Sequence record: PP763257.1
Reading direction: 5' to 3' (one strand)
Origin: Acinetobacter phage Ab5
DNA length: 64,000 bases
The notes beneath the pieces are model-generated. The model was given only the letters and a program-made list of their open reading frames with translations, was not told where the DNA came from and made no database searches. Shown here piece by piece: positions 2,497 through 21,717 of the stretch. Numbering within the stretch: position 1 is the first letter of the stretch; the number at the start of each line of letters is the position of its first letter. Made by a program: the position numbers and the translations under genes.

Positions 2497-2798
2497 AGAT
2501 AACAAAAGATCATGCTTTATTCTATGCAAGTAAGAAAAGTAAAGTCTTTTCTTGTGATGTATCAATTCATAGTTTGATTAATTCGCAAATAGAGTTATCT
2601 AAAAACTTTATTGATAAACATAATGACTTAACAATCATTAGATCATTATATCAACGTTGTATTCGTAATGATCTTAACTTATATGCAGAATTCAGAAGGT
2701 TACTTGAGTCGAGCACTACAATACGACCAAATAGGGCTAGAATGTGTAAAAACATTCTAAAGGGGTTAAGAAAGAATAAATATTTAAAAAGAATGTGA
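2493..2798 (+). CDS. hypothetical early protein
   Basis: ATGA-coupled ORF. Confidence 0.5.
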   Translation: MKITKDHALFYASKKSKVFSCDVSIHSLINSQIELSKNFIDKHNDLTIIRSLYQRCIRNDLNLYAEFRRLLESSTTIRPNRARMCKNILKGLRKNKYLKRM

Positions 2799-2823
2799 GT
2801 GTAAAGCTTGCATTCTTTTTTGT
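2790..2823 (+). terminator. hairpin AGAATG...CATTCT followed by TTTTTTG
   Basis: 6-bp stem with a 15-nt loop then T-run, overlapping the stop of 2493..2798. Confidence 0.35.
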
Positions 2824-2847
2824 TGTCTGTATAATGAAAAATATAAA

Positions 2848-3063
2848 ATGATAGATAGGAATAATATCATGCATTTCCGTGAAGTTAACAACAAGCTTAA
2901 ACAACTAAAGTCAGAAGTTATGTGGTGCAGTAAAGCTTTATCTTTCGCTAATGTGTCTAATGAAGTTTATCAAGCTAAAGTTCGAGCATTCTTTCAAGCT
3001 CAAAAAGAGTTAGAGCTATTTCGTAATACAACATTAAAGGAGCTATCATCATGTACAGTTTAG
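2848..3063 (+). CDS. hypothetical early protein
   Basis: ORF track. Ends in TAG. Confidence 0.45.
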   Translation: MIDRNNIMHFREVNNKLKQLKSEVMWCSKALSFANVSNEVYQAKVRAFFQAQKELELFRNTTLKELSSCTV

Positions 3064-3186
3064 TTATTATGTTCTTTTTAAATAATGGTATGAAATATGA
3101 CACTACAATCGTTAAGTCTAACATGTCTAAAAAATCTTGTTTGCTGCTATCATCACAGTTAATGGAAAACTTACAAGGATCTAATT

Positions 3187-3399
3187 ATGAGCTTAAATGT
3201 GTACCTACAAAGGATGAGTAATATGTTATATTCTTTAATTCTTGTTTTAACCTTATCTGGAAATTCTAATGAAGTAGTTTTGAAGGAACAATTAACACAA
3301 GATGAATGCGTTGCTATAATGCAAGAATCAAGCTACAAATACAAAACAGATAAAACTGAAATAATTTGCCGTAACGATGAATTTACATTAGTTATTTAA
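3187..3399 (+). CDS. hypothetical early protein
   Basis: ORF track. RBS AGGATGAG-like. Confidence 0.45.
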   Translation: MSLNVYLQRMSNMLYSLILVLTLSGNSNEVVLKEQLTQDECVAIMQESSYKYKTDKTEIICRNDEFTLVI

Positions 3400-3415
3400 A
3401 ATTTCAACAACACAT

Positions 3416-3439
3416 AGCCCCTTGATTGGGGCTTTTTTA
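3416..3439 (+). terminator. rho-independent terminator AGCCCC-ttgatt-GGGGCT + TTTTTT
   Basis: GC-rich stem directly after the stop of 3187..3399, followed by a T6 run. Confidence 0.6.
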
Positions 3440-3889
3440 CATCTATATAAAACATATCTTAGAATACTTCTAATATCATTCATTATAACGCCGTATAGCA
3501 GCTTTATAGCAACGTTATAGAGTTTTAAGCTAGGGTAGTACCTTAACGTATTAAAGTGTCTGTAATAAGCTTAGAATGAGTAATAAAGACATGTTTAAAA
3601 TTCTCTTTATAGAATTTAATTTGTATTGTTTCTTTAATCTTATCTCAAAATTAAATATCAAATCTTTTTAGCTTAAGGGTATCTGTTAAGGAGCTTGTTT
3701 GTATGTTTGTAAATAAAGATATAAGAAATAATTTAAATCAAGTGTGGTGAATCTTTAAAGCTTTGTGGGGATATACCAGTGATCATAAAAAGAAAAGTAT
3801 TAATCTTTGAAGTGATATTACTCGATATTTTATAGGAAAAACCGATCGAAAAGACCTAGCCCTCGCTTGGTATTAAATGATAGAACATA

Positions 3890-12652: not shown

Positions 12653-14025
12653 GTTAGCTCCTTTTCTATAGCAAGAATTGTTTCAAAAATTTTATCTTTG
12701 ACATTTAAATTAAAGCATTCAGTTTCACCTTTGAAACTTAACTTGGGCGAGTACCTATCTTTTCTAAAAGCTCGCTTTAATTTGTTTTCAGCATCGTATA
12801 CATTATCACAATAGCCTTTTAAAACGTGTAATACTTCAATATCGTAAGGTACTCTACTCTTAAACCTTTCGGAAACATCCTCATGAACAGTGATTCCTAC
12901 TTTTAGAAAGTTCTCATGATCGTTGTAACACCTAACCAGATACAAATTAGAGTTGTAATCGTACTTTTTACAAACTTCTCTGTACTCCGATCTTGAGTAA
13001 CCTCTTGTGCTATAGCAAACAGGGCATCCTGAACCTCTTAAGTGACTGTTTGGAACTTGTGAAAAAGTCTCAAAACAAGAGTTACATTTTATGTTAACTT
13101 TTACACTACTCAACTTATACAGCACATCAGTGTAATCGTAAGCATCTTCACCATGTACTTTTCTAGCTTTTAATACAAAGTCTTCAGTTGACAACCTATT
13201 TCTTTCAGAAATATTTCGTCTGTAGCAAGTCGTACAACCGTGACCAGATAAATGATTAGCTGGTTTTTGTTTAAAAACCAGTTCACAAGATTTGCAAAAT
13301 ATATCGACTGGTGTTACGGAGTTTTTATAAACAACATCCTTATAATCGAACAGGTCTCCGTGTACTTTAGTAGCTTTTTTAATGAAAGTACTGTTTAGGT
13401 AAGATTGATCATCTGATGTAAAAACATTCCTACACTCAGGACATCCTAAACCTTTCAGATGTTTAAAAGGTTGTGATTTAAAACTTCCGTGTACCTTGCA
13501 TGTTATAATAACCTTCTCAGTCGATCTATGATACTAAGTATCGTCATAGGAATACTTATTTCCGTGTATGTCTTTTGCTTTTTCAACAAACCATTCAGTG
13601 GTTTTAGTTTTAGAAGAAGCAATTTTCTTACCTCTACAAAGAGGGCAACCCTTACCGAGTAAATGACAAGAAGGTAGTTGCTCAAAAACACCATGTTCTC
13701 TGCAACGTATTTTTACCTTAATTAGTTTACCAGAGTACACTGTTTCCGAGTAGTCGTAAATACCTTTGTGAACTTTTTCAGAATCTTCAATAAATGTTGT
13801 ATATTGAGACCTTCTTGTTTCACCTCTCTGCACCTTAGAACACTCTGGACAGTTCCTACCTTTTAAGTGTACATACGCGGACTGATAAAAGCTCCCATGC
13901 AGTTTACAAATTATCTCTAACTTATCTTTAGATGTCTTGTATACACTTTTAGAATAATCATAGCGATCTCCGTGTCTTTCCTTAGCTTCTCTGATAAAAA
14001 TATCAGTTGTAACCTTTCTCCCCAC
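12649..14025 (-). pseudogene. Homing-endonuclease-like gene with five tandem zinc-ribbon repeats and a C-terminal T5orf172/GIY-YIG-like domain, interrupted by one in-frame TAG at 13534..13536. The ORF track splits it into 13534..14025 and 12649..13194.
   Basis: My minus-strand translation of 13195..13533 continues in frame with no stop. It carries repeat 3 of the motif HGxxYDYSxxxY...CxxHGxFxQ...HLxGxGCPxC and repeat 4 as a degenerate variant (HGDLFDYK...CKSCELVFKQ...HLSGHGCTTC). C-terminus KVGIT...EVLHVL...ECF. The downstream part has no ATG or GTG before the TTG at 13194. Confidence 0.55.
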
Positions 14026-14099
14026 CTGAACAGCAACTCCTATTTAAAACTCTCTTAACACTTCTTCAAAATATTCACTAAATGTCATAAATACATCTC

Positions 14100-14285
14100 C
14101 TATAATTTTCGCGGTGGTAATTTTATTTCTAAACCAATATCAGGACGCATGTGTCGAATCTTGAAGCCCATCTTCTGAACCTTTCGTAAAGCATCATCCT
14201 CTGTTTTTGCTGAAACACGAAGTTCACCTTCGATGTCATCAGTATACACTGTGAAGATTGTTCGCTTATTTGGTGTATGTCCCAT
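14100..14285 (-). CDS. hypothetical small protein
   Basis: ORF track. Confidence 0.4.
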   Translation of the reverse strand: MGHTPNKRTIFTVYTDDIEGELRVSAKTEDDALRKVQKMGFKIRHMRPDIGLEIKLPPRKL

Positions 14286-14563
14286 TACCCCTCCAAATCT
14301 TCTTCTAAAATTACATAATAAGTTTCACCTTCAAGTCGATCATACCTGTCAAAAAGATCGTAAATATCTTGTTGGTATTCATAAACAACATCTTCATCTT
14401 GATGTTCAAAAGGTGTAGATAAAATATATCCATTTAATCTTTTCTCAAGACTATTAAGTTCTTTGAAAAATTCCAATGACTCTTGATAAGGAATCAAATA
14501 TGTGTGACCATCATCGTCTTCATATGTTGCATAAATTTTATTTGGGTTGATATTCATTTTCAA
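14285..14563 (-). CDS. hypothetical acidic protein
   Basis: ORF track. D/E-rich. Confidence 0.45.
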   Translation of the reverse strand: MKMNINPNKIYATYEDDDGHTYLIPYQESLEFFKELNSLEKRLNGYILSTPFEHQDEDVVYEYQQDIYDLFDRYDRLEGETYYVILEEDLEG

Positions 14564-16248: not shown

Positions 16249-16306
16249 GTAAAATAACAATATTTAACAATGATAGCAAGTATATTGTTATTTTTTGTTA
16301 AAACTA

Positions 16307-16335
16307 TTGACATTCACTCTTGACAAGGTTATAGT
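16307..16335 (+). promoter_or_regulatory. sigma70-like promoter TTGACA-17-TATAGT driving the rightward late/structural transcript
   Basis: Consensus -35 and near-consensus -10 with 17-nt spacer. Divergent from the 16220..16248 promoter. Confidence 0.5.
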
Positions 16336-16348
16336 GCAAGGACAGGGT

Positions 16349-16420
16349 TGGGTTGGATATGTTATTATGAGTGAAACGAAATAATAATACATTAATGTCA
16401 ATCTTTAGATTGCTACAATA
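16349..16420 (+). repeat. Conserved 72-nt leader element, copy A (GGGTTGGATATGTTATTATGAGTGAAACGAAATAATAATACATTAATGTCAATCTTTAGATTGCTACA). A partial second copy ATGAGTGAAACGAA lies at 16427..16440.
   Basis: Perfect reverse-complement match to 49114..49185. Contains a TTATTAT/ATAATAA hairpin and the palindrome CAATCTttAGATTG. Confidence 0.7.
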
Positions 16421-16551
16421 TATTGAATGAGTGAAACGAATGAAATATATTGGGATATAAGAATAGTATTATAAATATAACATTTACAATATGCTATATG
16501 TGTTCTATGCGTAGCATAATATATTATATAATAATATTGTAAAATAATACT

Positions 16552-17235
16552 TTGGAGAATTACAAGAATATGTCAACATTAGAAGATTATCTATCTTTAA
16601 GAATACAAGACTGTTACTACGATAGTAATACATACTTTAACAGAGATAAGAATTTATATCATGTTTATTTGTTTTATTATGATAATGTATTAGTTTATGT
16701 TCATTATGGACAGAAGGGAACAGAAGAAATACATTACACCTCAGAATCACCATGTCCAAAGTTTAGAAAGATTTATAAAGAGAATAAGACACACCTGATC
16801 TCACACCATCACCTTACCAAGTTTAGTGTTTTACATGATTGTTTGTTTTATGTTGATTTCTTGATTAATAAATTCAAACCTAAATACAATAAGAAGATTG
16901 AAGTGTTAGATGAAACTGTGTACAATAAACAGATCAGATTTACACATACTCCAGATGAAATACCTCATGACAATGAACTAACTTTGTTGTATTTGTTTTG
17001 TTTACTTGGTTATCCACTTCAATTGATATCTGATTACACTGGTGTTGATCTTAAAGAATTAAGTAAGATTAAAAACAGAGAAGGAAGATATTCTTATCCT
17101 GTGTTTTGTTTTGAATATGTAAACAAACAAGGATTTGCTGTTGTGGATAAAGCTTTGCTTAATCATTATTGTAATGTTGTGTTTAAGACAGATATTGATC
17201 GTATTGAAGAGCTTTATGGTGTTGCTTATTTTTAG
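16552..17235 (+). CDS. hypothetical protein
   Basis: ORF track. RBS TTTGGAGAA. TAG stop. Confidence 0.5.
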   Translation: MENYKNMSTLEDYLSLRIQDCYYDSNTYFNRDKNLYHVYLFYYDNVLVYVHYGQKGTEEIHYTSESPCPKFRKIYKENKTHLISHHHLTKFSVLHDCLFYVDFLINKFKPKYNKKIEVLDETVYNKQIRFTHTPDEIPHDNELTLLYLFCLLGYPLQLISDYTGVDLKELSKIKNREGRYSYPVFCFEYVNKQGFAVVDKALLNHYCNVVFKTDIDRIEELYGVAYF

Positions 17236-17355
17236 CACATATACCAATTAAAAATCATAGTCAATAATAATTTTGTAAAGTTATGTAAAAAAGCTTGACT
17301 AATCTTTAAAAGGTTGTTATTCTTATCAACATAAAGAAAACAATAAATAATAATT

Positions 17356-17383
17356 TCTGAATGGACTCCTTAATTCAGAAAGG
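17356..17383 (+). other. hairpin TTCTGAAT-(10)-ATTCAGAA
   Basis: Perfect 8-bp inverted repeat in non-coding region 17236..17667. Confidence 0.4.
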
Positions 17384-17399
17384 ATTCACTTTCCTCCAA

Positions 17400-17457
17400 C
17401 ATCACTCTCTTATTCTACAAACAATAATAATAAAGACTCTCCTGTAAGAGAGTGATG
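17400..17457 (+). other. long hairpin CATCACTCTCTTA-(32 nt)-TAAGAGAGTGATG followed by a U-rich tract
   Basis: Perfect 13-bp inverted repeat. Possible terminator or structured RNA. Confidence 0.45.
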
Positions 17458-17470
17458 TATTTTCTAATAT

Positions 17471-17555
17471 GCGGAAATCAGTAAGATGTAGTGAAGTAAG
17501 TGACTAGTTAAACTTATGAATCGAGAGTTGGTTAGAATCCAACAATTCCGCTCCA
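17471..17555 (+). other. tRNA-like fragment with a near-canonical T-arm GTTGG-TTAGAAT-CCAAC and an acceptor-like pairing GCGGAAA/ATTCCGC-T-CCA. D-arm and anticodon arm are non-canonical.
   Basis: T-arm GGTTAGAATCC differs by one base from the consensus GGTTCGAATCC. 6 of 7 acceptor pairs. The only anticodon-like stem (TAAGT/ACTTA) has a 10-nt loop GACTAGTTAA. Confidence 0.2.
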
Positions 17556-17667
17556 GATTTTAAATTTCACCCATGATCAGATTACGGTGGGTATGAAACG
17601 TGTAGTGGTGTCGCTACCATGTAAGCGAATGTGGCACATTATTTATTAGCAACAAATAGGTAAAATA

Positions 17668-18030
17668 TTGAACGAAGCTATTCTATGTTTAGCAATTGCA
17701 ATATTCAACGAAAGTCGTGGTGAACCAACTAAAGGTCAATATGCTGTAGCTGAAGTTATTCATAACCGAAGTAGGCATGATGATTTTCCTAAAGGGTATT
17801 GTGATGTCGTTAAACAACGAGGTCAGTTTTCTTGGTATAAAAGCTCAAAAGATTTGAAACCACCTAAGCACGATACGGATGCTTGGAATGATAGCGTGAA
17901 AGTCGCTAACTCCTTTTACACCAATAAAACAAATTATACGAAAGGCGCATTATACTTTAATTCTAGTAGATTAGGTGTTCGCTTTAATAAACAATTAAAA
18001 TGTAAAATTGGAAAGCATGTTTTCTTTTGA
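17668..18030 (+). CDS. SleB-like cell-wall hydrolase (Hydrolase_2 family), TTG start
   Basis: LCLAIAIFNESRGEPTKGQYAVAEVIHNRSRHDDFP...QRGQFSWY matches the SleB domain pattern (YAEARGE..GQ.AVA.VilNR...FP....QF). Confidence 0.6.
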   Translation: MNEAILCLAIAIFNESRGEPTKGQYAVAEVIHNRSRHDDFPKGYCDVVKQRGQFSWYKSSKDLKPPKHDTDAWNDSVKVANSFYTNKTNYTKGALYFNSSRLGVRFNKQLKCKIGKHVFF

Positions 18031-18049
18031 TTACATGCTTTTTTATTTT
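18013..18049 (+). terminator. rho-independent terminator AAGCATGT-(12)-ACATGCTT + TTTTATTTT
   Basis: Perfect 8-bp stem overlapping the stop of 17668..18030, then a T-run. Confidence 0.6.
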
Positions 18050-18059
18050 CGAGGTATTT

Positions 18060-18413
18060 ATGGCAGCAAGAAATTTCGATAAGGTTTATGACGCTAAAGT
18101 AATTAAAGCTAAGATGAACGCTGATGTTGAATTAGCAATTAAAATCTTACGTGATGGATTAGTGTCAACTACCCTAAATGAAAAAGATAAAATTAAATTA
18201 GCTTCAGATTATCTTGGTTGGTTTATCCGTTTAGACAACAAGATTATTCAAGATGAATTCAACAAAGAAGCTTTAAAACAATCAAAATTAAAAACTCTCT
18301 CAATTCAAAACGATTTACATGAAAAAGAGAATGAAGAATTTTTAGAAGAAACAAAACCTTTAAATCAACATAAATTTAATCCATATATGAGTGATGACGA
18401 TAACTATAGTTAG
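18060..18413 (+). CDS. putative terminase small subunit (by position). ATG at 18060 after GAGG, inside track ORF 18027..18413.
   Basis: Roughly 117-aa ORF immediately upstream of TerL. No motif evidence. Confidence 0.35.
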   Translation: MAARNFDKVYDAKVIKAKMNADVELAIKILRDGLVSTTLNEKDKIKLASDYLGWFIRLDNKIIQDEFNKEALKQSKLKTLSIQNDLHEKENEEFLEETKPLNQHKFNPYMSDDDNYS

Positions 18414-18423
18414 GAGGTAGAAT

Positions 18424-20226
18424 TTGAGCGCACAATTCAGACCAACCTCAAAACGACAAGAGTTATTCCTTGCATCAAACAGTTTTCTAACTATATTTGG
18501 TGGTGCAGCATCAGGTGGTAAATCGTATACAGGATTAATGAGATTCTTAAACTACGTTCATGACCCTAACTTTGTTGGTTATGTGTTCCGACAAATTGGT
18601 GCAGATATTAAGAAAGAAGGTGGTCTTTTCTGGACTGCTGTTAAGATGTTTCAGCAATATGATCCTGATGTAACTTATACCACTCAACCGATGGTTATTA
18701 AGTTTCCGCATCCAGACCCAGTTAAAAGAAAAAGAAAAGTTAAAGGTGCAACAATATCATTTACTGGTCTAGATGATCAGGATGGTATGAATGCAATTCA
18801 AGGTATTAACATTTCTGCTGCAATGATTGATGAGGCCACACAAGTTGGTGAAGAAGAATTCTGGTGGTTAATCACTCGTCTTCGTACAGAAGCCAATATG
18901 ACCCCTAATTTATGGTTAACGTGTAACCCTGATGATCAATCATTTGTATTAAGACAATTCGTTCACTGGTGGTTATATCCACGCGGTACTATTGCTGATA
19001 TCGTCTCAACTAATATCTATGAAAAAGACCTAAAACACATTCAAGTTAATGATCGTGTTTTTATTGAATTATATGAAGATGGTGAGTTAATTAAGACTTA
19101 TGAAACTGGTGGGCACATTACACTTTCCGACAACATCCAATTTTTTAGTGTTGCTGGAAGTTTATCTGTCCATCGTGGATATGTTGAGAATGGTGTTAGA
19201 TTGTTTACATCAATTCCAAGATTAACAGAAAATCAAGTAGCTTTTTTAGTATTAAAAAGAAAAGGGAATGAAGTCTTTAAATCTGAGATGGTTGTTGATG
19301 GTCAAGAAGATGTTGGTGGAAGACCAGACATTGAGAAGAATGGTAAACAACTTTATTATTTAAACGTTGAGAATAAAGTTCACCTTGCAACATCACTTGA
19401 TGAGTTGTACAAAGAACTTCCAGAATACAGAGGTCATCCAACAATTATTCCTGATACAGTAAGTTTCATCGGAGCAACGTGTAAAGATAACCCTACATAT
19501 CTTCTCAAAAACCCTGCATATGAATCTAAACTCCAAAACCAACCAAGATTAAAAAGAGAACAACTCTATTATGGTAACTGGTATGCGAAGGAAGAAGGTG
19601 CTGGTTATTTCCGAAGAGAGTGGTTATTTGAACCACTAAAACAACCTTTTCCAGAAGATCAAATTCAATCTCGTGTTCGTTGTTTTGACTTAGCATCTAC
19701 CGAACCAACAGAAGCAAATCCAAATCCCGACTGGACAGTTGGAGTTTTGATTGCTAAAACAAAATCAGGTCTCTATGTAATTGAAGATATGGTTCGATTT
19801 AGAAAACGTGCTGGTGAAGTTGAACAACTAATAATCGATATTGTTGAAAAAGATGTTGACTTATATGGCAGTGATAAATACAAAGGATATCTTCCGATAG
19901 ACCCTGGGTCTGCTGGAAAAACATCTAAGATTTATTATGCAAAGTTATTTGCTGAACGTAAAGTTCCAATTAGATTCATTAAAGTTGGTACAAAGAATTC
20001 TAAGATGAAACGATTTGAACCATTTTCTGCATCTTCAGAAAACGAATTGGTTCGTATTGTTAAAGGTGATTGGAATGATGAATTCTTTTATGAGCTAGAA
20101 GCATTCGGTGGGAACAATAAGAATGTCCACGATGATATCGTGGACTCGGTGAGTGACGGATTTAATGTTCTAGCAACTAAGAAAGAACTACCAAAAATTA
20201 ATGCAAAATTATTAAAAATGTCGTAA
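18424..20226 (+). CDS. terL: terminase large subunit (TTG start, RBS AGGAGG)
   Basis: Walker A GGAASGGKSYTG, Walker B AAMIDEATQ. 600 aa. First gene of the morphogenesis block. Confidence 0.85.
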   Translation: MSAQFRPTSKRQELFLASNSFLTIFGGAASGGKSYTGLMRFLNYVHDPNFVGYVFRQIGADIKKEGGLFWTAVKMFQQYDPDVTYTTQPMVIKFPHPDPVKRKRKVKGATISFTGLDDQDGMNAIQGINISAAMIDEATQVGEEEFWWLITRLRTEANMTPNLWLTCNPDDQSFVLRQFVHWWLYPRGTIADIVSTNIYEKDLKHIQVNDRVFIELYEDGELIKTYETGGHITLSDNIQFFSVAGSLSVHRGYVENGVRLFTSIPRLTENQVAFLVLKRKGNEVFKSEMVVDGQEDVGGRPDIEKNGKQLYYLNVENKVHLATSLDELYKELPEYRGHPTIIPDTVSFIGATCKDNPTYLLKNPAYESKLQNQPRLKREQLYYGNWYAKEEGAGYFRREWLFEPLKQPFPEDQIQSRVRCFDLASTEPTEANPNPDWTVGVLIAKTKSGLYVIEDMVRFRKRAGEVEQLIIDIVEKDVDLYGSDKYKGYLPIDPGSAGKTSKIYYAKLFAERKVPIRFIKVGTKNSKMKRFEPFSASSENELVRIVKGDWNDEFFYELEAFGGNNKNVHDDIVDSVSDGFNVLATKKELPKINAKLLKMS

Positions 20227-20235
20227 GAGGGAGAC

Positions 20236-21717
20236 ATGGCAACAACAAGAAAGAAAAAAGAACCTGTCTTACCTAAAGAGATCGGAACAACAGATAGTGG
20301 TCGTTTTGATCCTATGCGATTAGATAGACGTGGCGGTTTACCAAGAGAACTTGTGTTTCCTCATAGTATTTATACTTATGATGAGATGGCAAAAAACCCT
20401 ACAATTGCAGCAGCATTAAATGCTATCTCATTAATTGCTTTACGTGTACCACGTTACATTGAACCATATGATAGCTCAGTTACTCATAAAAAGAGAGCAG
20501 AATTCCTTGATGAGTGTTTAGGTGTTACTACTCCTTCAAATGATATGACTCATACATTTGATGATTTCATTCGTGAAACTCTATCAATGAATAAATATGG
20601 CTTCTGTATCACAGAGAAAGTGTTCCGTGTTAGACGTTTGAAGAATGGTAGTAAATATGATGATGGTAAAGTTGGCATTAAAAGATTACCAATTCGACCT
20701 CAATATTCTATTGAAGATTTTGTATACGATGAAGAAGGTCGTGACTTACTAGCAATCAAACAAGCTGTCAATACAAAGAACTTTAAGAAATCTGCTTTAT
20801 CTTCATTGATTGATGGAAATCTAAAATTAATTCCTAGAGAAAGCTTCATGTTGTTTAATGCAGAAGCAACTAATGGAAGTGCTATTAGTATTTCACCTTT
20901 AGCTCATGTTTATGAAGTTTGGTCAGAATTAATTAAATATAAAGACCTTGAGAACATCGCATCATCTAAAAACTTAAATGGTTTACCTGTTCTGTGGATG
21001 CCTGCTGAAAACATGGTTGATGATCCAGAAGACCCAGCAAGTGAAGTGTTTAAAGTATTACGAGATGGTATTAGTAAGATTTCAGTTGGTCAACAAACAT
21101 CATTAATGCTTCCTAGTGATCGTGAACAAGACTCTGGTGCTGGTGGTAAGCTTTATGACTTCCAGTTAATGTCTGCTTCATCTTCAAATATTACAGCTAT
21201 TCAACAAACAATTAAACGTCTTACTGATGAGATTCTTCAATGTCTTTCTGCTGACTGGTTGAAAGATGGTAATGAGATTGATACTGCTAAAACATCTTTG
21301 ATGATTATGTTAGTTGAGGGAAGAATTAGAGAAATCTTTACTCGTTTAAATACTGATCTTATTCCTCATTTATGGAGATGGAATGGTTGGGACGATACAA
21401 AGCTTCCTCAAATTAAATATGGAACATTGAAAGAAGTTAGTATGGCAGATTTTGCTAAAGCTATGCAACAACTTAAAGCTACTAAATTGGTTGCTGTCAC
21501 TCCTAAGAACATTAACTACATTGCTGAGAAGACAGGCTTACCTGAACGTCTAGACGAGAATTTAACACAAGATGAATTAAATAAGATTCTTGGTGTGGAA
21601 GATAAAGATGATTCAAAATCAGCGTCAGGATACGAAAGTGATACTGGTGGTTTAAATGGTCAAGGAAATTCAGTTAGTGAAACAGACAACTCAGCGTCAA
21701 ACCTGAATAATAAATAA
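20236..21717 (+). CDS. portal protein
   Basis: 493 aa, directly after TerL, RBS GGAG. Acidic Gly/Ser-rich C-terminus. Confidence 0.65.
   Translation: MATTRKKKEPVLPKEIGTTDSGRFDPMRLDRRGGLPRELVFPHSIYTYDEMAKNPTIAAALNAISLIALRVPRYIEPYDSSVTHKKRAEFLDECLGVTTPSNDMTHTFDDFIRETLSMNKYGFCITEKVFRVRRLKNGSKYDDGKVGIKRLPIRPQYSIEDFVYDEEGRDLLAIKQAVNTKNFKKSALSSLIDGNLKLIPRESFMLFNAEATNGSAISISPLAHVYEVWSELIKYKDLENIASSKNLNGLPVLWMPAENMVDDPEDPASEVFKVLRDGISKISVGQQTSLMLPSDREQDSGAGGKLYDFQLMSASSSNITAIQQTIKRLTDEILQCLSADWLKDGNEIDTAKTSLMIMLVEGRIREIFTRLNTDLIPHLWRWNGWDDTKLPQIKYGTLKEVSMADFAKAMQQLKATKLVAVTPKNINYIAEKTGLPERLDENLTQDELNKILGVEDKDDSKSASGYESDTGGLNGQGNSVSETDNSASNLNNK

Follow-up and report, generated by a model that had tools for sequence, protein, structure and literature searches.

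Phage transfer RNAs (tRNAs) counter tRNA-targeting defenses (PMC10264068, PMC11464382, PMC11555353), and phage tRNA islands also host structured RNAs, GOLLD and ROOL, that multimerize through kissing loops (PMC12286853). Such islands are increasingly viewed both as counter-defense loci and as homes of these enigmatic RNAs. Small non-coding copies of the tRNA architecture, some of them encoded by phages, are represented by YrlA (RF02553) and by the tRNA-like domain of transfer-messenger RNA (tmRNA). In human immunodeficiency virus type 1 (HIV-1), the dimerization initiation site (DIS) is a 6-nucleotide (nt) palindrome held in a 9-10-nt hairpin loop with conserved flanks, and the palindrome itself differs between lineages. 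In phage lambda, the PR'-tR' unit combines a strong promoter, an early terminator and Q antitermination at the head of a very long late operon. Here we analyze positions 17236-17667 of a 64,000-nt stretch (hereafter the window) of Acinetobacter phage Ab5 (PP763257.1), a myophage of Acinetobacter baumannii. This intergenic gap contains an 85-nt tRNA-like RNA, designated Y, and a second RNA, designated X, that folds into a pseudoknot. We consider it very probable that Y is a conserved, functional, non-decoding RNA derived from a tRNA and that X is a real pseudoknot RNA. A broader proposal, in which the gap combines a late-operon leader, a cargo slot for small RNAs, a non-decoding Y and X, is one that we favor with considerably less assurance.

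Y resembles phage tRNAs, and tRNA-Gly (RF00005) in particular, in occupying the same slots on the same strand, in possessing an acceptor stem followed by N-CCA, in carrying Gly determinants and in its four-arm outline, and some copies keep a hairpin that resembles a T-arm. It differs from a tRNA in its acceptor stem of 6 bp, a 3-bp mini-hairpin instead of the D-arm, junctions of 8 and 9 nt, and a loop of 10 nt. As in the YrlA and tmRNA type of mimic, the likeness to tRNA probably serves to engage tRNA-binding proteins. Unlike these, however, Y harbors neither a Ro-binding stem nor a tag reading frame and closes on itself within 85 nt, and neither Rfam (tmRNA and YrlA) nor ARAGORN (tmRNA) gave a match in the window. 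Y shares with the HIV-1 DIS a palindromic hexamer in a loop, with variants that are palindromic as well; nevertheless, its loop is AU-rich rather than GC-rich, it is borne on a tRNA-like scaffold in a DNA phage, and its dimer is predicted. GOLLD and ROOL are, like Y, conserved structured RNAs located beside phage tRNAs with a function that is not known, but they span 600-800 nt, and Y exhibits no sequence or model similarity to them, is tRNA-shaped and ends in CCA. The leader in which Y resides recalls lambda PR'-tR', with a hairpin and U-run within ~135 nt of a promoter and an operon that starts with lysis and packaging genes. It departs from the lambda unit in the unusually large loop of that hairpin (H2), and termination and antitermination are here only predicted. 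RNA mimics derived from tRNAs are already a known kind, and possible dimerization is the most unusual aspect of Y.

The homologues of Y comprise 17 distinct copies from three phage groups and from environmental contigs, all exactly 85 nt long from G1 to CCA, with pairwise identities as low as 61%. Their consensus fold (RNAalifold) has four helices: the acceptor stem has 6 bp and bears the stacked mini-hairpin of 3 bp immediately upon it, the anticodon-like stem, likewise of 6 bp, closes the 10-nt loop, and the third arm has 4-5 bp and a 7-nt loop (Table 1). Standard pairs occupy 94.4% of the stem cells, compared with 34-42% in slid controls, in which partners were shifted by 1-3 columns (another count gave 95.7%, and the slid controls of both counts span 34-44%). 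Ten pairs are altered on both sides, and none of 500 shuffles matched the observed pairing, the covariation score or the double-change counts. The case for Y rests on this comparative evidence, because the fold of the single sequence is only modestly better than that of shuffled versions (z -2.1). The frequent G.U pairs and the absence of A.C pairs in the stems imply that the RNA corresponds to the + strand, as do the flanking genes and tRNAs. The covariance model R1 recovers exactly one unit in the window, the same 85 nt, with the same stems and TCCA, that a preliminary description of the gap had delineated. All the features listed in that description exist, with some coordinates displaced by a few bases.

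Variation is unevenly distributed along Y. Only one of the 8 columns of junction J1 and two of the 9 columns of J2 vary, and none of the four columns of the loop frame or the four of the NCCA end (3/25 for these parts together), while 7 of 12 columns vary in the anticodon-like stem, 14 of 17 in the third arm and all five in the mini-loop. Such a distribution is that of a functional RNA. By sequence comparison, purifying selection on Y is strong and three or more phage lineages show compensatory changes, which implies that Y is not decaying. This bears on the degenerate tRNA raised in the preliminary description, considered here as a pseudogene of tRNA-Gly or tRNA-Tyr left behind as a functionless remnant in the island. 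Such a remnant would be in keeping with the failure of ARAGORN and Rfam to call Y, with the real tRNAs in the same slot of relatives, with the absence of Y from phage TaPaz and locus L138, and with the acceptor mismatches of a few copies. However, a pseudogene would be expected to accumulate indels and to display the opposite pattern of variation, whereas all copies retain the exact length, the ten compensatory pairs and near-invariant junctions while the stems drift. We therefore regard decay as very unlikely.

ARAGORN and Rfam, proposed in the preliminary description as checks on a tRNA in the gap, gave no tRNA or family match there: ARAGORN reports 0 genes in the window and Rfam no tRNA at the gathering score, while both do detect the genuine tRNAs of relatives. 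None of the Rfam 15 families matched Y or X in the window at the gathering score, and a search of positions 17100-17800 with E up to 10 returned only matches with E >8 in the gap. Neither a D-arm nor a 7-nt anticodon loop can be built, as had already been noted. The place of the D-arm is taken by the 3-bp hairpin (Y positions 7-9 with 15-17) with its variable 5-nt loop; among the D-arm landmarks U8, A14, G18 and G19, position 8 is U or C, and the GG is missing. The 6-bp anticodon-like stem invariably bears a loop of 10 nt. Across the loop variants GACTAGTTAA, GCTATAGTAA, GCTTAAGTAA and GAATAGTTAA no triplet is fixed at any position, so CTA is not a conserved anticodon. The preliminary description also raised an unusual tRNA. 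If decoding, Y could be an amber suppressor, or a frameshift suppressor whose enlarged anticodon loop includes CUA, and the cloverleaf-like fold, the encoded CCA, the Gly-type acceptor and the presence of CTA in most loops speak for this option. It conflicts with the lack of a fixed triplet, the 10-nt loop, the missing D-arm with G18G19, a third-arm loop that may read AGCATAT, and junctions of 8-9 nt compared with 1-5 nt in tRNAs. In addition, the genes are read with the standard code, and ARAGORN and Rfam both reject Y as a tRNA. A decoding role is accordingly given very little credence. Even less weight attaches to a 12-codon micro-open reading frame (micro-ORF; ATG CGG ... GAC TAG) as the cause of the sequence conservation. 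An in-frame ATG (or TTG) does lead to TAG in the window, BS46 and Y-c copies. The micro-ORF is rejected because close relatives contain a premature TGA (codon 6 in phiAB441 and in the Y-a copy of MD-2021a); it also lacks a Shine-Dalgarno sequence, and the substitutions are mostly non-synonymous and follow the stems.

The third arm and the acceptor end were compared with those of tRNAs. The near-canonical T-arm reported for the window is present in the sequence, but it is lineage-specific, because the third-arm loop of the family also reads AGCATAT. The remaining versions are TTAGAAT, TTTGAAT and TTTGATT, with the canonical TTCGATT in phage Ab15 only, and a conserved T-loop (T54-Psi55-C56, A58) is absent across the family. 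The third arm in the window is 1 nt away from the T-arm of a phage tRNA-Tyr, and the Ab15 copy contains a canonical GGTTCGATTCC; both appear, at the level of sequence, to be signs of tRNA ancestry. A non-coding RNA derived from a tRNA is the best of the three options offered in the preliminary description, and relatives hold real tRNAs in the same slot. The acceptor determinants of bacterial tRNA-Gly are U73, G1-C72, C2-G71 and G3-C70 (PMC9976931 Table 1). Y of the window carries all four, and within the family C2-G71, G3-C70 and U73 are invariant (17/17 copies) and G1-C72 is found in 15/17. In the acceptor stem (positions 1-6 with 76-81), 97% of the cells are paired, with one covarying pair, followed by the invariant U-CCA end. 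These determinants are essentially invariant while the other stems covary freely. Of 14 tRNAs in the array of phage Mithridates, tRNA-Gly alone has all four determinants, and the island tRNAs all encode CCA, as Y does. A toxin has been described that recognizes tRNA-Gly by U73 and G71 (PMC9976931). A descent from tRNA-Gly that extends past the acceptor end was considered and discarded: globally, Y is no more similar to tRNA-Gly than to the other array tRNAs, and our claim is therefore limited to a tRNA-derived RNA with a Gly-type acceptor end.

Table 1 Features of the gap and the first gene downstream (window coordinates)
Feature	Position	Strand	Details
Sigma-70-type promoter, conserved	17273..17323	+	9/12 matches with TG (promoter scan) and conservation; upstream block TTGTAAAGTTATGTAAAAAAG; -35 TTGACT 17295-17300; 17-nt spacer; extended -10 TGtTATTCT 17315-17323
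Hairpin H1	17354..17381	+	9-bp stem 17354-17362/17373-17381, 10-nt loop
CCTCC, anti-Shine-Dalgarno-like motif, conserved	17393..17397	+	Just 5' of H2
H2, terminator-like hairpin	17399..17466	+	Arms 17399-17412/17445-17458, 32-nt loop, then AUUUUCU
Y, 85-nt tRNA-like RNA	17471..17555	+	Covariance model R1, 107.6 bits
Y acceptor stem	17471-17476 with 17546-17551	+	GCGGAA/TTCCGC
Y mini-hairpin	17477-17479 with 17485-17487	+	3 bp
Y junction J1, conserved	17488-17495	+	8 nt
Y anticodon-like stem	17496-17501 with 17512-17517	+	Includes TAAGT/ACTTA; loop GACTAGTTAA
Y loop, proposed kissing-loop dimerization site	17502..17511	+	GACUAGUUAA; G, 6-nt palindrome 17503-17508, UAA
Y junction J2, conserved	17518-17526	+	9 nt
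Y third arm	17527-17531 with 17539-17543	+	GTTGG-TTAGAAT-CCAAC
Y U-CCA end	17552-17555	+	TCCA
X, conserved pseudoknotted RNA	17565..17640	+	Model R2, 107.9 bits, one copy in window
X P1	17568-17573 with 17588-17593	+	Conserved loop UGAUCAGAUUACGG (UGAUCAG...AUUACGG)
X P2	17599-17605 with 17614-17621	+	Invariant
X pseudoknot	P2 loop 17608-17613 with tail 17632-17637	+	Covarying
SleB-like cell-wall hydrolase, first late-operon gene	17668..18030	+	TTG start; PF07486, E 3.8e-21

Acinetobacter phage phiAB441, the closest relative of the window, matches the region 16500-20300 with 96.9% identity. Further relatives are vB_AbaM_B9 (B9), TaPaz, MD-2021a, BS46, Phab24 and Ab3-TPeters; these, like phiAB441, are virulent A. 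baumannii myophages of ~90 kb. Comparison of the syntenic gaps revealed a variable slot for tRNAs and small RNAs. Homologues of Y occupy the same slot as in the window in B9, phiAB441 and MD-2021a. The gap of BS46 (~890 bp) holds tRNA-Tyr and tRNA-Leu, and that of Ab3-TPeters (~1.6 kb) holds tRNA-Asn, tRNA-Pro and tRNA-Ser, with tRNA-Asn exactly at the position of the window Y, between H2 and X. A second subtype of Y is located just 5' of the hydrolase gene in BS46, Phab24, Ab3-TPeters and MD-2021a, the last of which carries two copies of Y. Pattern scans of viral, metagenome and genome collections revealed a third subtype, from contigs of uncultured viruses and metagenomes, and no bacterial copy was found in the genome collection. 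A fourth subtype, detected by BLAST, occurs in the AM24 group, which comprises AM24, Mithridates, Bestia and Ab15. Its copies are embedded in an array of at least 14 tRNA genes, flanked by tRNA-Tyr and tRNA-Ile; the array follows the tailspike and endolysin genes, away from the terminase. At locus L018, Y begins 6 nt past a tRNA-Arg on the same strand. Loci L060 and L138 are close relatives that differ cleanly in the presence or absence of Y, and the location of Y relative to X varies among phages. Most of the extra pattern-scan matches were discarded as chance matches in coding sequence (L121-L130; L137; L009-L029 except L015, L018 and L028; L035-L090 except L042, L060 and L078). Y is annotated in none of the GenBank records examined (13 with the matched region), two of which have spurious small ORFs across it, and no description of Y or X was found in the literature, in which genome papers list only the tRNAs called by ARAGORN. 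Current annotation thus misses Y completely.

The same distribution bears on the possibility that Y is a DNA-level site beside the terminase genes, whether a pac or cos site, an operator, a recombination site or the attP-like 3'-tRNA fragment suggested in the preliminary description. In L042, L060 and the B9/BS46 group, TerS and TerL do lie downstream of Y, and the Y loop is a DNA palindrome. An attP-like fragment is contradicted by the presence of both acceptor strands in Y, by the virulence of the phages and by the lack of an annotated integrase in phiAB441; a search of Escherichia coli genomes and plasmids, a set outside the host genus Acinetobacter, gave no match to Y. A DNA site more generally is difficult to reconcile with the location of Y in a tRNA array away from the terminase in the AM24 group, with G.U pairs in the absence of A.C pairs, which denote strand-specific folding of a single strand, and with the viability of phages without Y. 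Moreover, the three palindromes of the loop differ, which a sequence-specific DNA-binding protein would not tolerate. We deem this class of explanations highly improbable.

Several further elements were observed around Y in the larger islands. Ab15 (L136, PP763259.1) contains a GOLLD RNA (RF02032; 218.9 bits, E 4e-61) at 3243-3608, inside the tRNA island and ~700 nt downstream of its Y copy, where the record annotates only small hypothetical ORFs. Between their tRNAs and Y, the larger islands have in common a conserved non-coding stretch of 300-800 nt, absent from the window, at 3250-3560 of BS46 (L002), 2915-3715 of Ab3-TPeters (L005), 2640-3095 of MD-2021a (L007) and ~1760-2170 of L015 (- strand). 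This sequence, with the motifs CCCATGCGCG.TTA.TTT, AATCCTCT.TCGGTTGTCACGTACTGA, CCTCCATAACGTGATTGGA and GCTGACTGCTAGGAATAGACTAGCAAA, has no Rfam match and may be another large structured RNA. Directly 5' of the BS46-type and AM24-type copies of Y there is always a long-range stem, TTAGAGAAGTGAAT...TTCACTTCATCTAAGTTT (L002 3505-3562; L006 3120-3322; L133 2395-2483 and 2158-2240), which surrounds a variable insert of ~30-170 nt. Part of the Phab24 insert resembles the T-arm of a tRNA (GTTGGTTCGAGTCCAAC) and is not called by ARAGORN, and a similar module follows tRNA-Tyr in Mithridates. ARAGORN also misses several tRNA-like genes, located in L015 (- strand, 2440-2575), L098/L114, L102 and L116. 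The L015 unit reads GGAGAGT...GTAGGTTCAAATCCTAC-A-GCTCTCC-ACCA with an insert of ~110 nt, and those of L098, L114 and L116 are tRNA-Gly-like, with the D-arm GTGTCGAAA.AGACAC and the T-loop CGCAAGT. Y or the tRNA arrays adjoin genes of mobile elements: an HNH-type ORF at 108-638 of L042 ends 1 nt before Y, a TnpB-like ORF lies ~1 kb downstream of Y in L015 (reoriented, 13284-14339), and an HNH homing endonuclease is found within the AM24 tRNA array (L135, 4073-4426). Such genes may explain the cassette-like gain and loss.

The 10-nt loop of Y has an invariant frame composed of G, six nucleotides and UAA. Four distinct hexamers occur in this frame, ACTAGT in most copies, CTATAG in phiAB441, CTTAAG in L060 and AATAGT in L042 and L078, and the first three are palindromic in the same frame, with a chance of 1/64 per hexamer. 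CTATAG and CTTAAG are related by a symmetric double change. Scored as pseudo-pairs, the palindrome positions are 98.5% paired and 3/4 covary, and with the invariant G and U counted as G1.U8 pairs the self-complementary segment extends to 8 nt. The predicted self-duplex energy of the three palindromic loops ranges from -8.6 to -9.2 kcal/mol, compared with a random mean of -2 to -3 kcal/mol; the AATAGT version is at +0.2 kcal/mol. Because the six palindromic nucleotides of a loop are unable to pair with one another, they are most simply read as the contact of a symmetric kissing (loop-loop) dimer, and the energy model suggests that two copies of Y may associate in this manner. The complements of the Y loop, J1 and J2, representing potential antisense targets, have no exact match in the 64-kb window, with only scattered matches at one mismatch.

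X lies downstream of Y in the window. Every B9/BS46-type phage carries it, as do L060 and L138, regardless of whether Y or tRNAs are present, and it was not found in the AM24-group loci. Its cells are 94.4% paired, compared with 20-58% in slid controls, and seven pairs are changed on both sides, three of them in the pseudoknot. P1 in L060 and L138 is a wholly different yet complementary, fully compensated stem, and a linker, UAAGCGAAUG, is conserved. The P2 loop and the 3' tail read GUGUC/GGCAC in the window, GUGUC/GACAC in MD-2021a, GUAUC/GAUAC in BS46 and CCU/AGG (3 counted pairs) in Ab3-TPeters and L060. The predicted pseudoknot is of the H-type, with three covarying pairs. The palindrome reported just before the hydrolase gene, AATGTGGCACATT, does exist, at 17628-17640, ~5 nt away from the position 17623-17636 given for it; it forms the 3' strand of the X pseudoknot, and its palindromic character is not conserved. 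Known ribozymes and riboswitches, HDV-like ones included, were considered for X and rejected, since in our judgment the topology does not fit and Rfam gave no match.

The location of both RNAs, between a promoter with a terminator-like hairpin and a 28-kb operon, raises the alternative that Y and X act only in cis, as elements of the late leader involved in antitermination or RNA stability, and are never released. The presence of X in every phage of the lineage, even in those without Y or tRNAs, agrees with such a role. Y, in contrast, is absent from TaPaz and L138, shifts relative to X, is found inside tRNA arrays elsewhere, and has an invariant NCCA end like the neighboring tRNAs. We consider this alternative improbable for the pair; a cis-only role is unlikely for Y and quite possible for X.

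The 5' part of the gap has the organization of a leader. The -35 element, the TGnTAT -10 element and the upstream block of the promoter are shared by the window and TaPaz with BS46 and Phab24 despite diverged flanks, and transcription is predicted to start near 17330, with a conserved ACATAAAG thereafter. Hairpin H1 corresponds to the 8-bp hairpin that had been assigned to 17356..17383; it is present, although its stem has 9 bp and lies 1-2 nt away. H1 has one mismatch in TaPaz and is not a conserved element, because it is deleted in BS46 and Phab24; on this comparison it is lineage-specific and probably without a conserved role. The block TTCCTCCAAC around CCTCC is invariant in the window, TaPaz, BS46 and Phab24, and CTCCTCCC occupies the same position in L138. 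H2 was recovered where a 13-bp hairpin with a 32-nt loop had been described, as two 14-nt arms, 100% complementary and spaced 32 nt apart (stem of 14-15 bp). Its folding energy in the window is -20.5 kcal/mol (z -6.4; 0/200 shuffles as good), and z-scores of -5.2 in BS46 and -3.9 in L138 were obtained, the L138 stem being of a different sequence. Two compensatory changes separate the window from BS46. A U-run follows H2 in the window, where it begins 1 nt past the stem, and in BS46 and L138, and the arrangement with CCUCC on the 5' side and the U-run on the 3' side is kept in these three lineages. The stem is AU-rich, and a terminator scan matched only the nested 3' part of H2. From the folding model, we put at about even the chance that H2 is a terminator or attenuator close to the promoter. 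No Q-like protein, qut site or antiterminator was identified. The 227-amino acid (aa) ORF 5' of the gap was considered as a regulator and rejected, having neither a Pfam nor a PHROG match. In this lineage, the leader that regulates the late operon would be defined by X and H2.

Taken together, we propose that the gap is the transcribed leader of a long late (structural) operon and also a cargo slot for small-RNA genes. The conserved promoter would fire into H2, which would terminate or attenuate transcription near the promoter, and the read-through transcripts would carry Y, X and then the hydrolase, terminase and portal genes. Y could be excised from the island transcript by tRNA-processing enzymes, and its acceptor end could be read by a factor that recognizes the acceptor end of tRNA-Gly. 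Candidates for this factor are glycyl-tRNA synthetase (GlyRS) and a host toxin that targets tRNAs, and Y would then serve as a mimic or decoy. A symmetric kissing dimer may form when two copies of Y pair by the 8 self-complementary nt of their loops. X would be an independent pseudoknot RNA, acting in cis or in trans and always retained in the late leader of this lineage. The gain and loss of Y among phages resembles that of a tRNA cassette. A decoy role is suggested by context only, from the phage tRNAs that counter tRNA-targeting defenses and the toxin that reads tRNA-Gly. The combined dimer and mimic mechanism is tentative and, in our estimate, less likely than not. Still more doubtful is a further extension, in which Y would be the first member of a new class of phage small RNAs, namely, mimics of the tRNA-Gly acceptor end on a remodeled tRNA scaffold that form DIS-like symmetric dimers of RNA only and are trans-acting decoys or sponges of a host factor reading that end (for example, a defense toxin that targets tRNA or aminoacyl-tRNA, or GlyRS), and X represents a second new class that controls the late operon. 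The Gly-type acceptor end and the self-complementary loop of Y provide two directly testable hypotheses, tRNA-Gly mimicry and RNA-only dimerization. Y is small and easily synthesized, and it occurs in A. baumannii phages studied for therapy.

Several observations weigh against this reading. The functional steps of Y (expression, processing, aminoacylation and dimerization) are all ones that we infer. Y is dispensable, as TaPaz and L138 lack it and keep H2 and X, and some copies have acceptor mismatches (G1.A in Ab3, A5.C in AM24 and U6.C in Bestia). The link to Gly concerns the acceptor end only, and Y, having no canonical anticodon loop, lacks equivalents of the anticodon determinants C35 and C36. 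Model R1 does not match the tRNA-Gly genes of the AM24-group arrays, and its weak matches to other tRNA-Gly genes come from loci picked with a Y-derived pattern. The evidence from the palindrome comprises only four distinct loop versions, one of which (AATAGT, in L042 and L078) is not palindromic, and an AU-rich duplex of 6-8 bp is much weaker than the classical GC-rich kissing loops. In the leader, the number of promoter-scan matches is not above the shuffle expectation, so that the promoter call rests on conservation across lineages, and the 32-nt loop of H2 is atypically large for an intrinsic terminator.

The gap itself contains no ORF of at least 30 aa in the ORF list. The preliminary description was fair in stating that a gap of 430 bp stands out, but others of this size exist: phiAB441 has about four gaps of more than 390 bp within its first 50 kb, this one included. 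The genes that follow are the hydrolase, a TerS-like gene, TerL and the portal (ORF list and annotations of relatives), and the structural operon 3' of the gap is ~28 kb long, tightly packed and, in phiAB441, without a comparable gap. The hydrolase start at 17668, a TTG with the weak Shine-Dalgarno sequence TAGGTAAA, is common to the window, B9, TaPaz and phiAB441, and in BS46-type phages the start is an ATG with AAGGTGA. TerL (18424-20226 in the window) has 600 aa here and in phiAB441, ~491-509 aa in B9, Ab3-TPeters and Phab24, and 848 aa in TaPaz and MD-2021a, where it is annotated as intein-containing; from these length differences, the TerL of the window seems to carry an insertion of ~100 aa. 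Upstream, the divergent intergenic region 16261-16551 is very AT-rich (17-27% GC), separates leftward early-type genes from the rightward 227-aa ORF, and contains the best promoter match of the neighborhood (TTGACA-17-TATAGT, 16307-16335).

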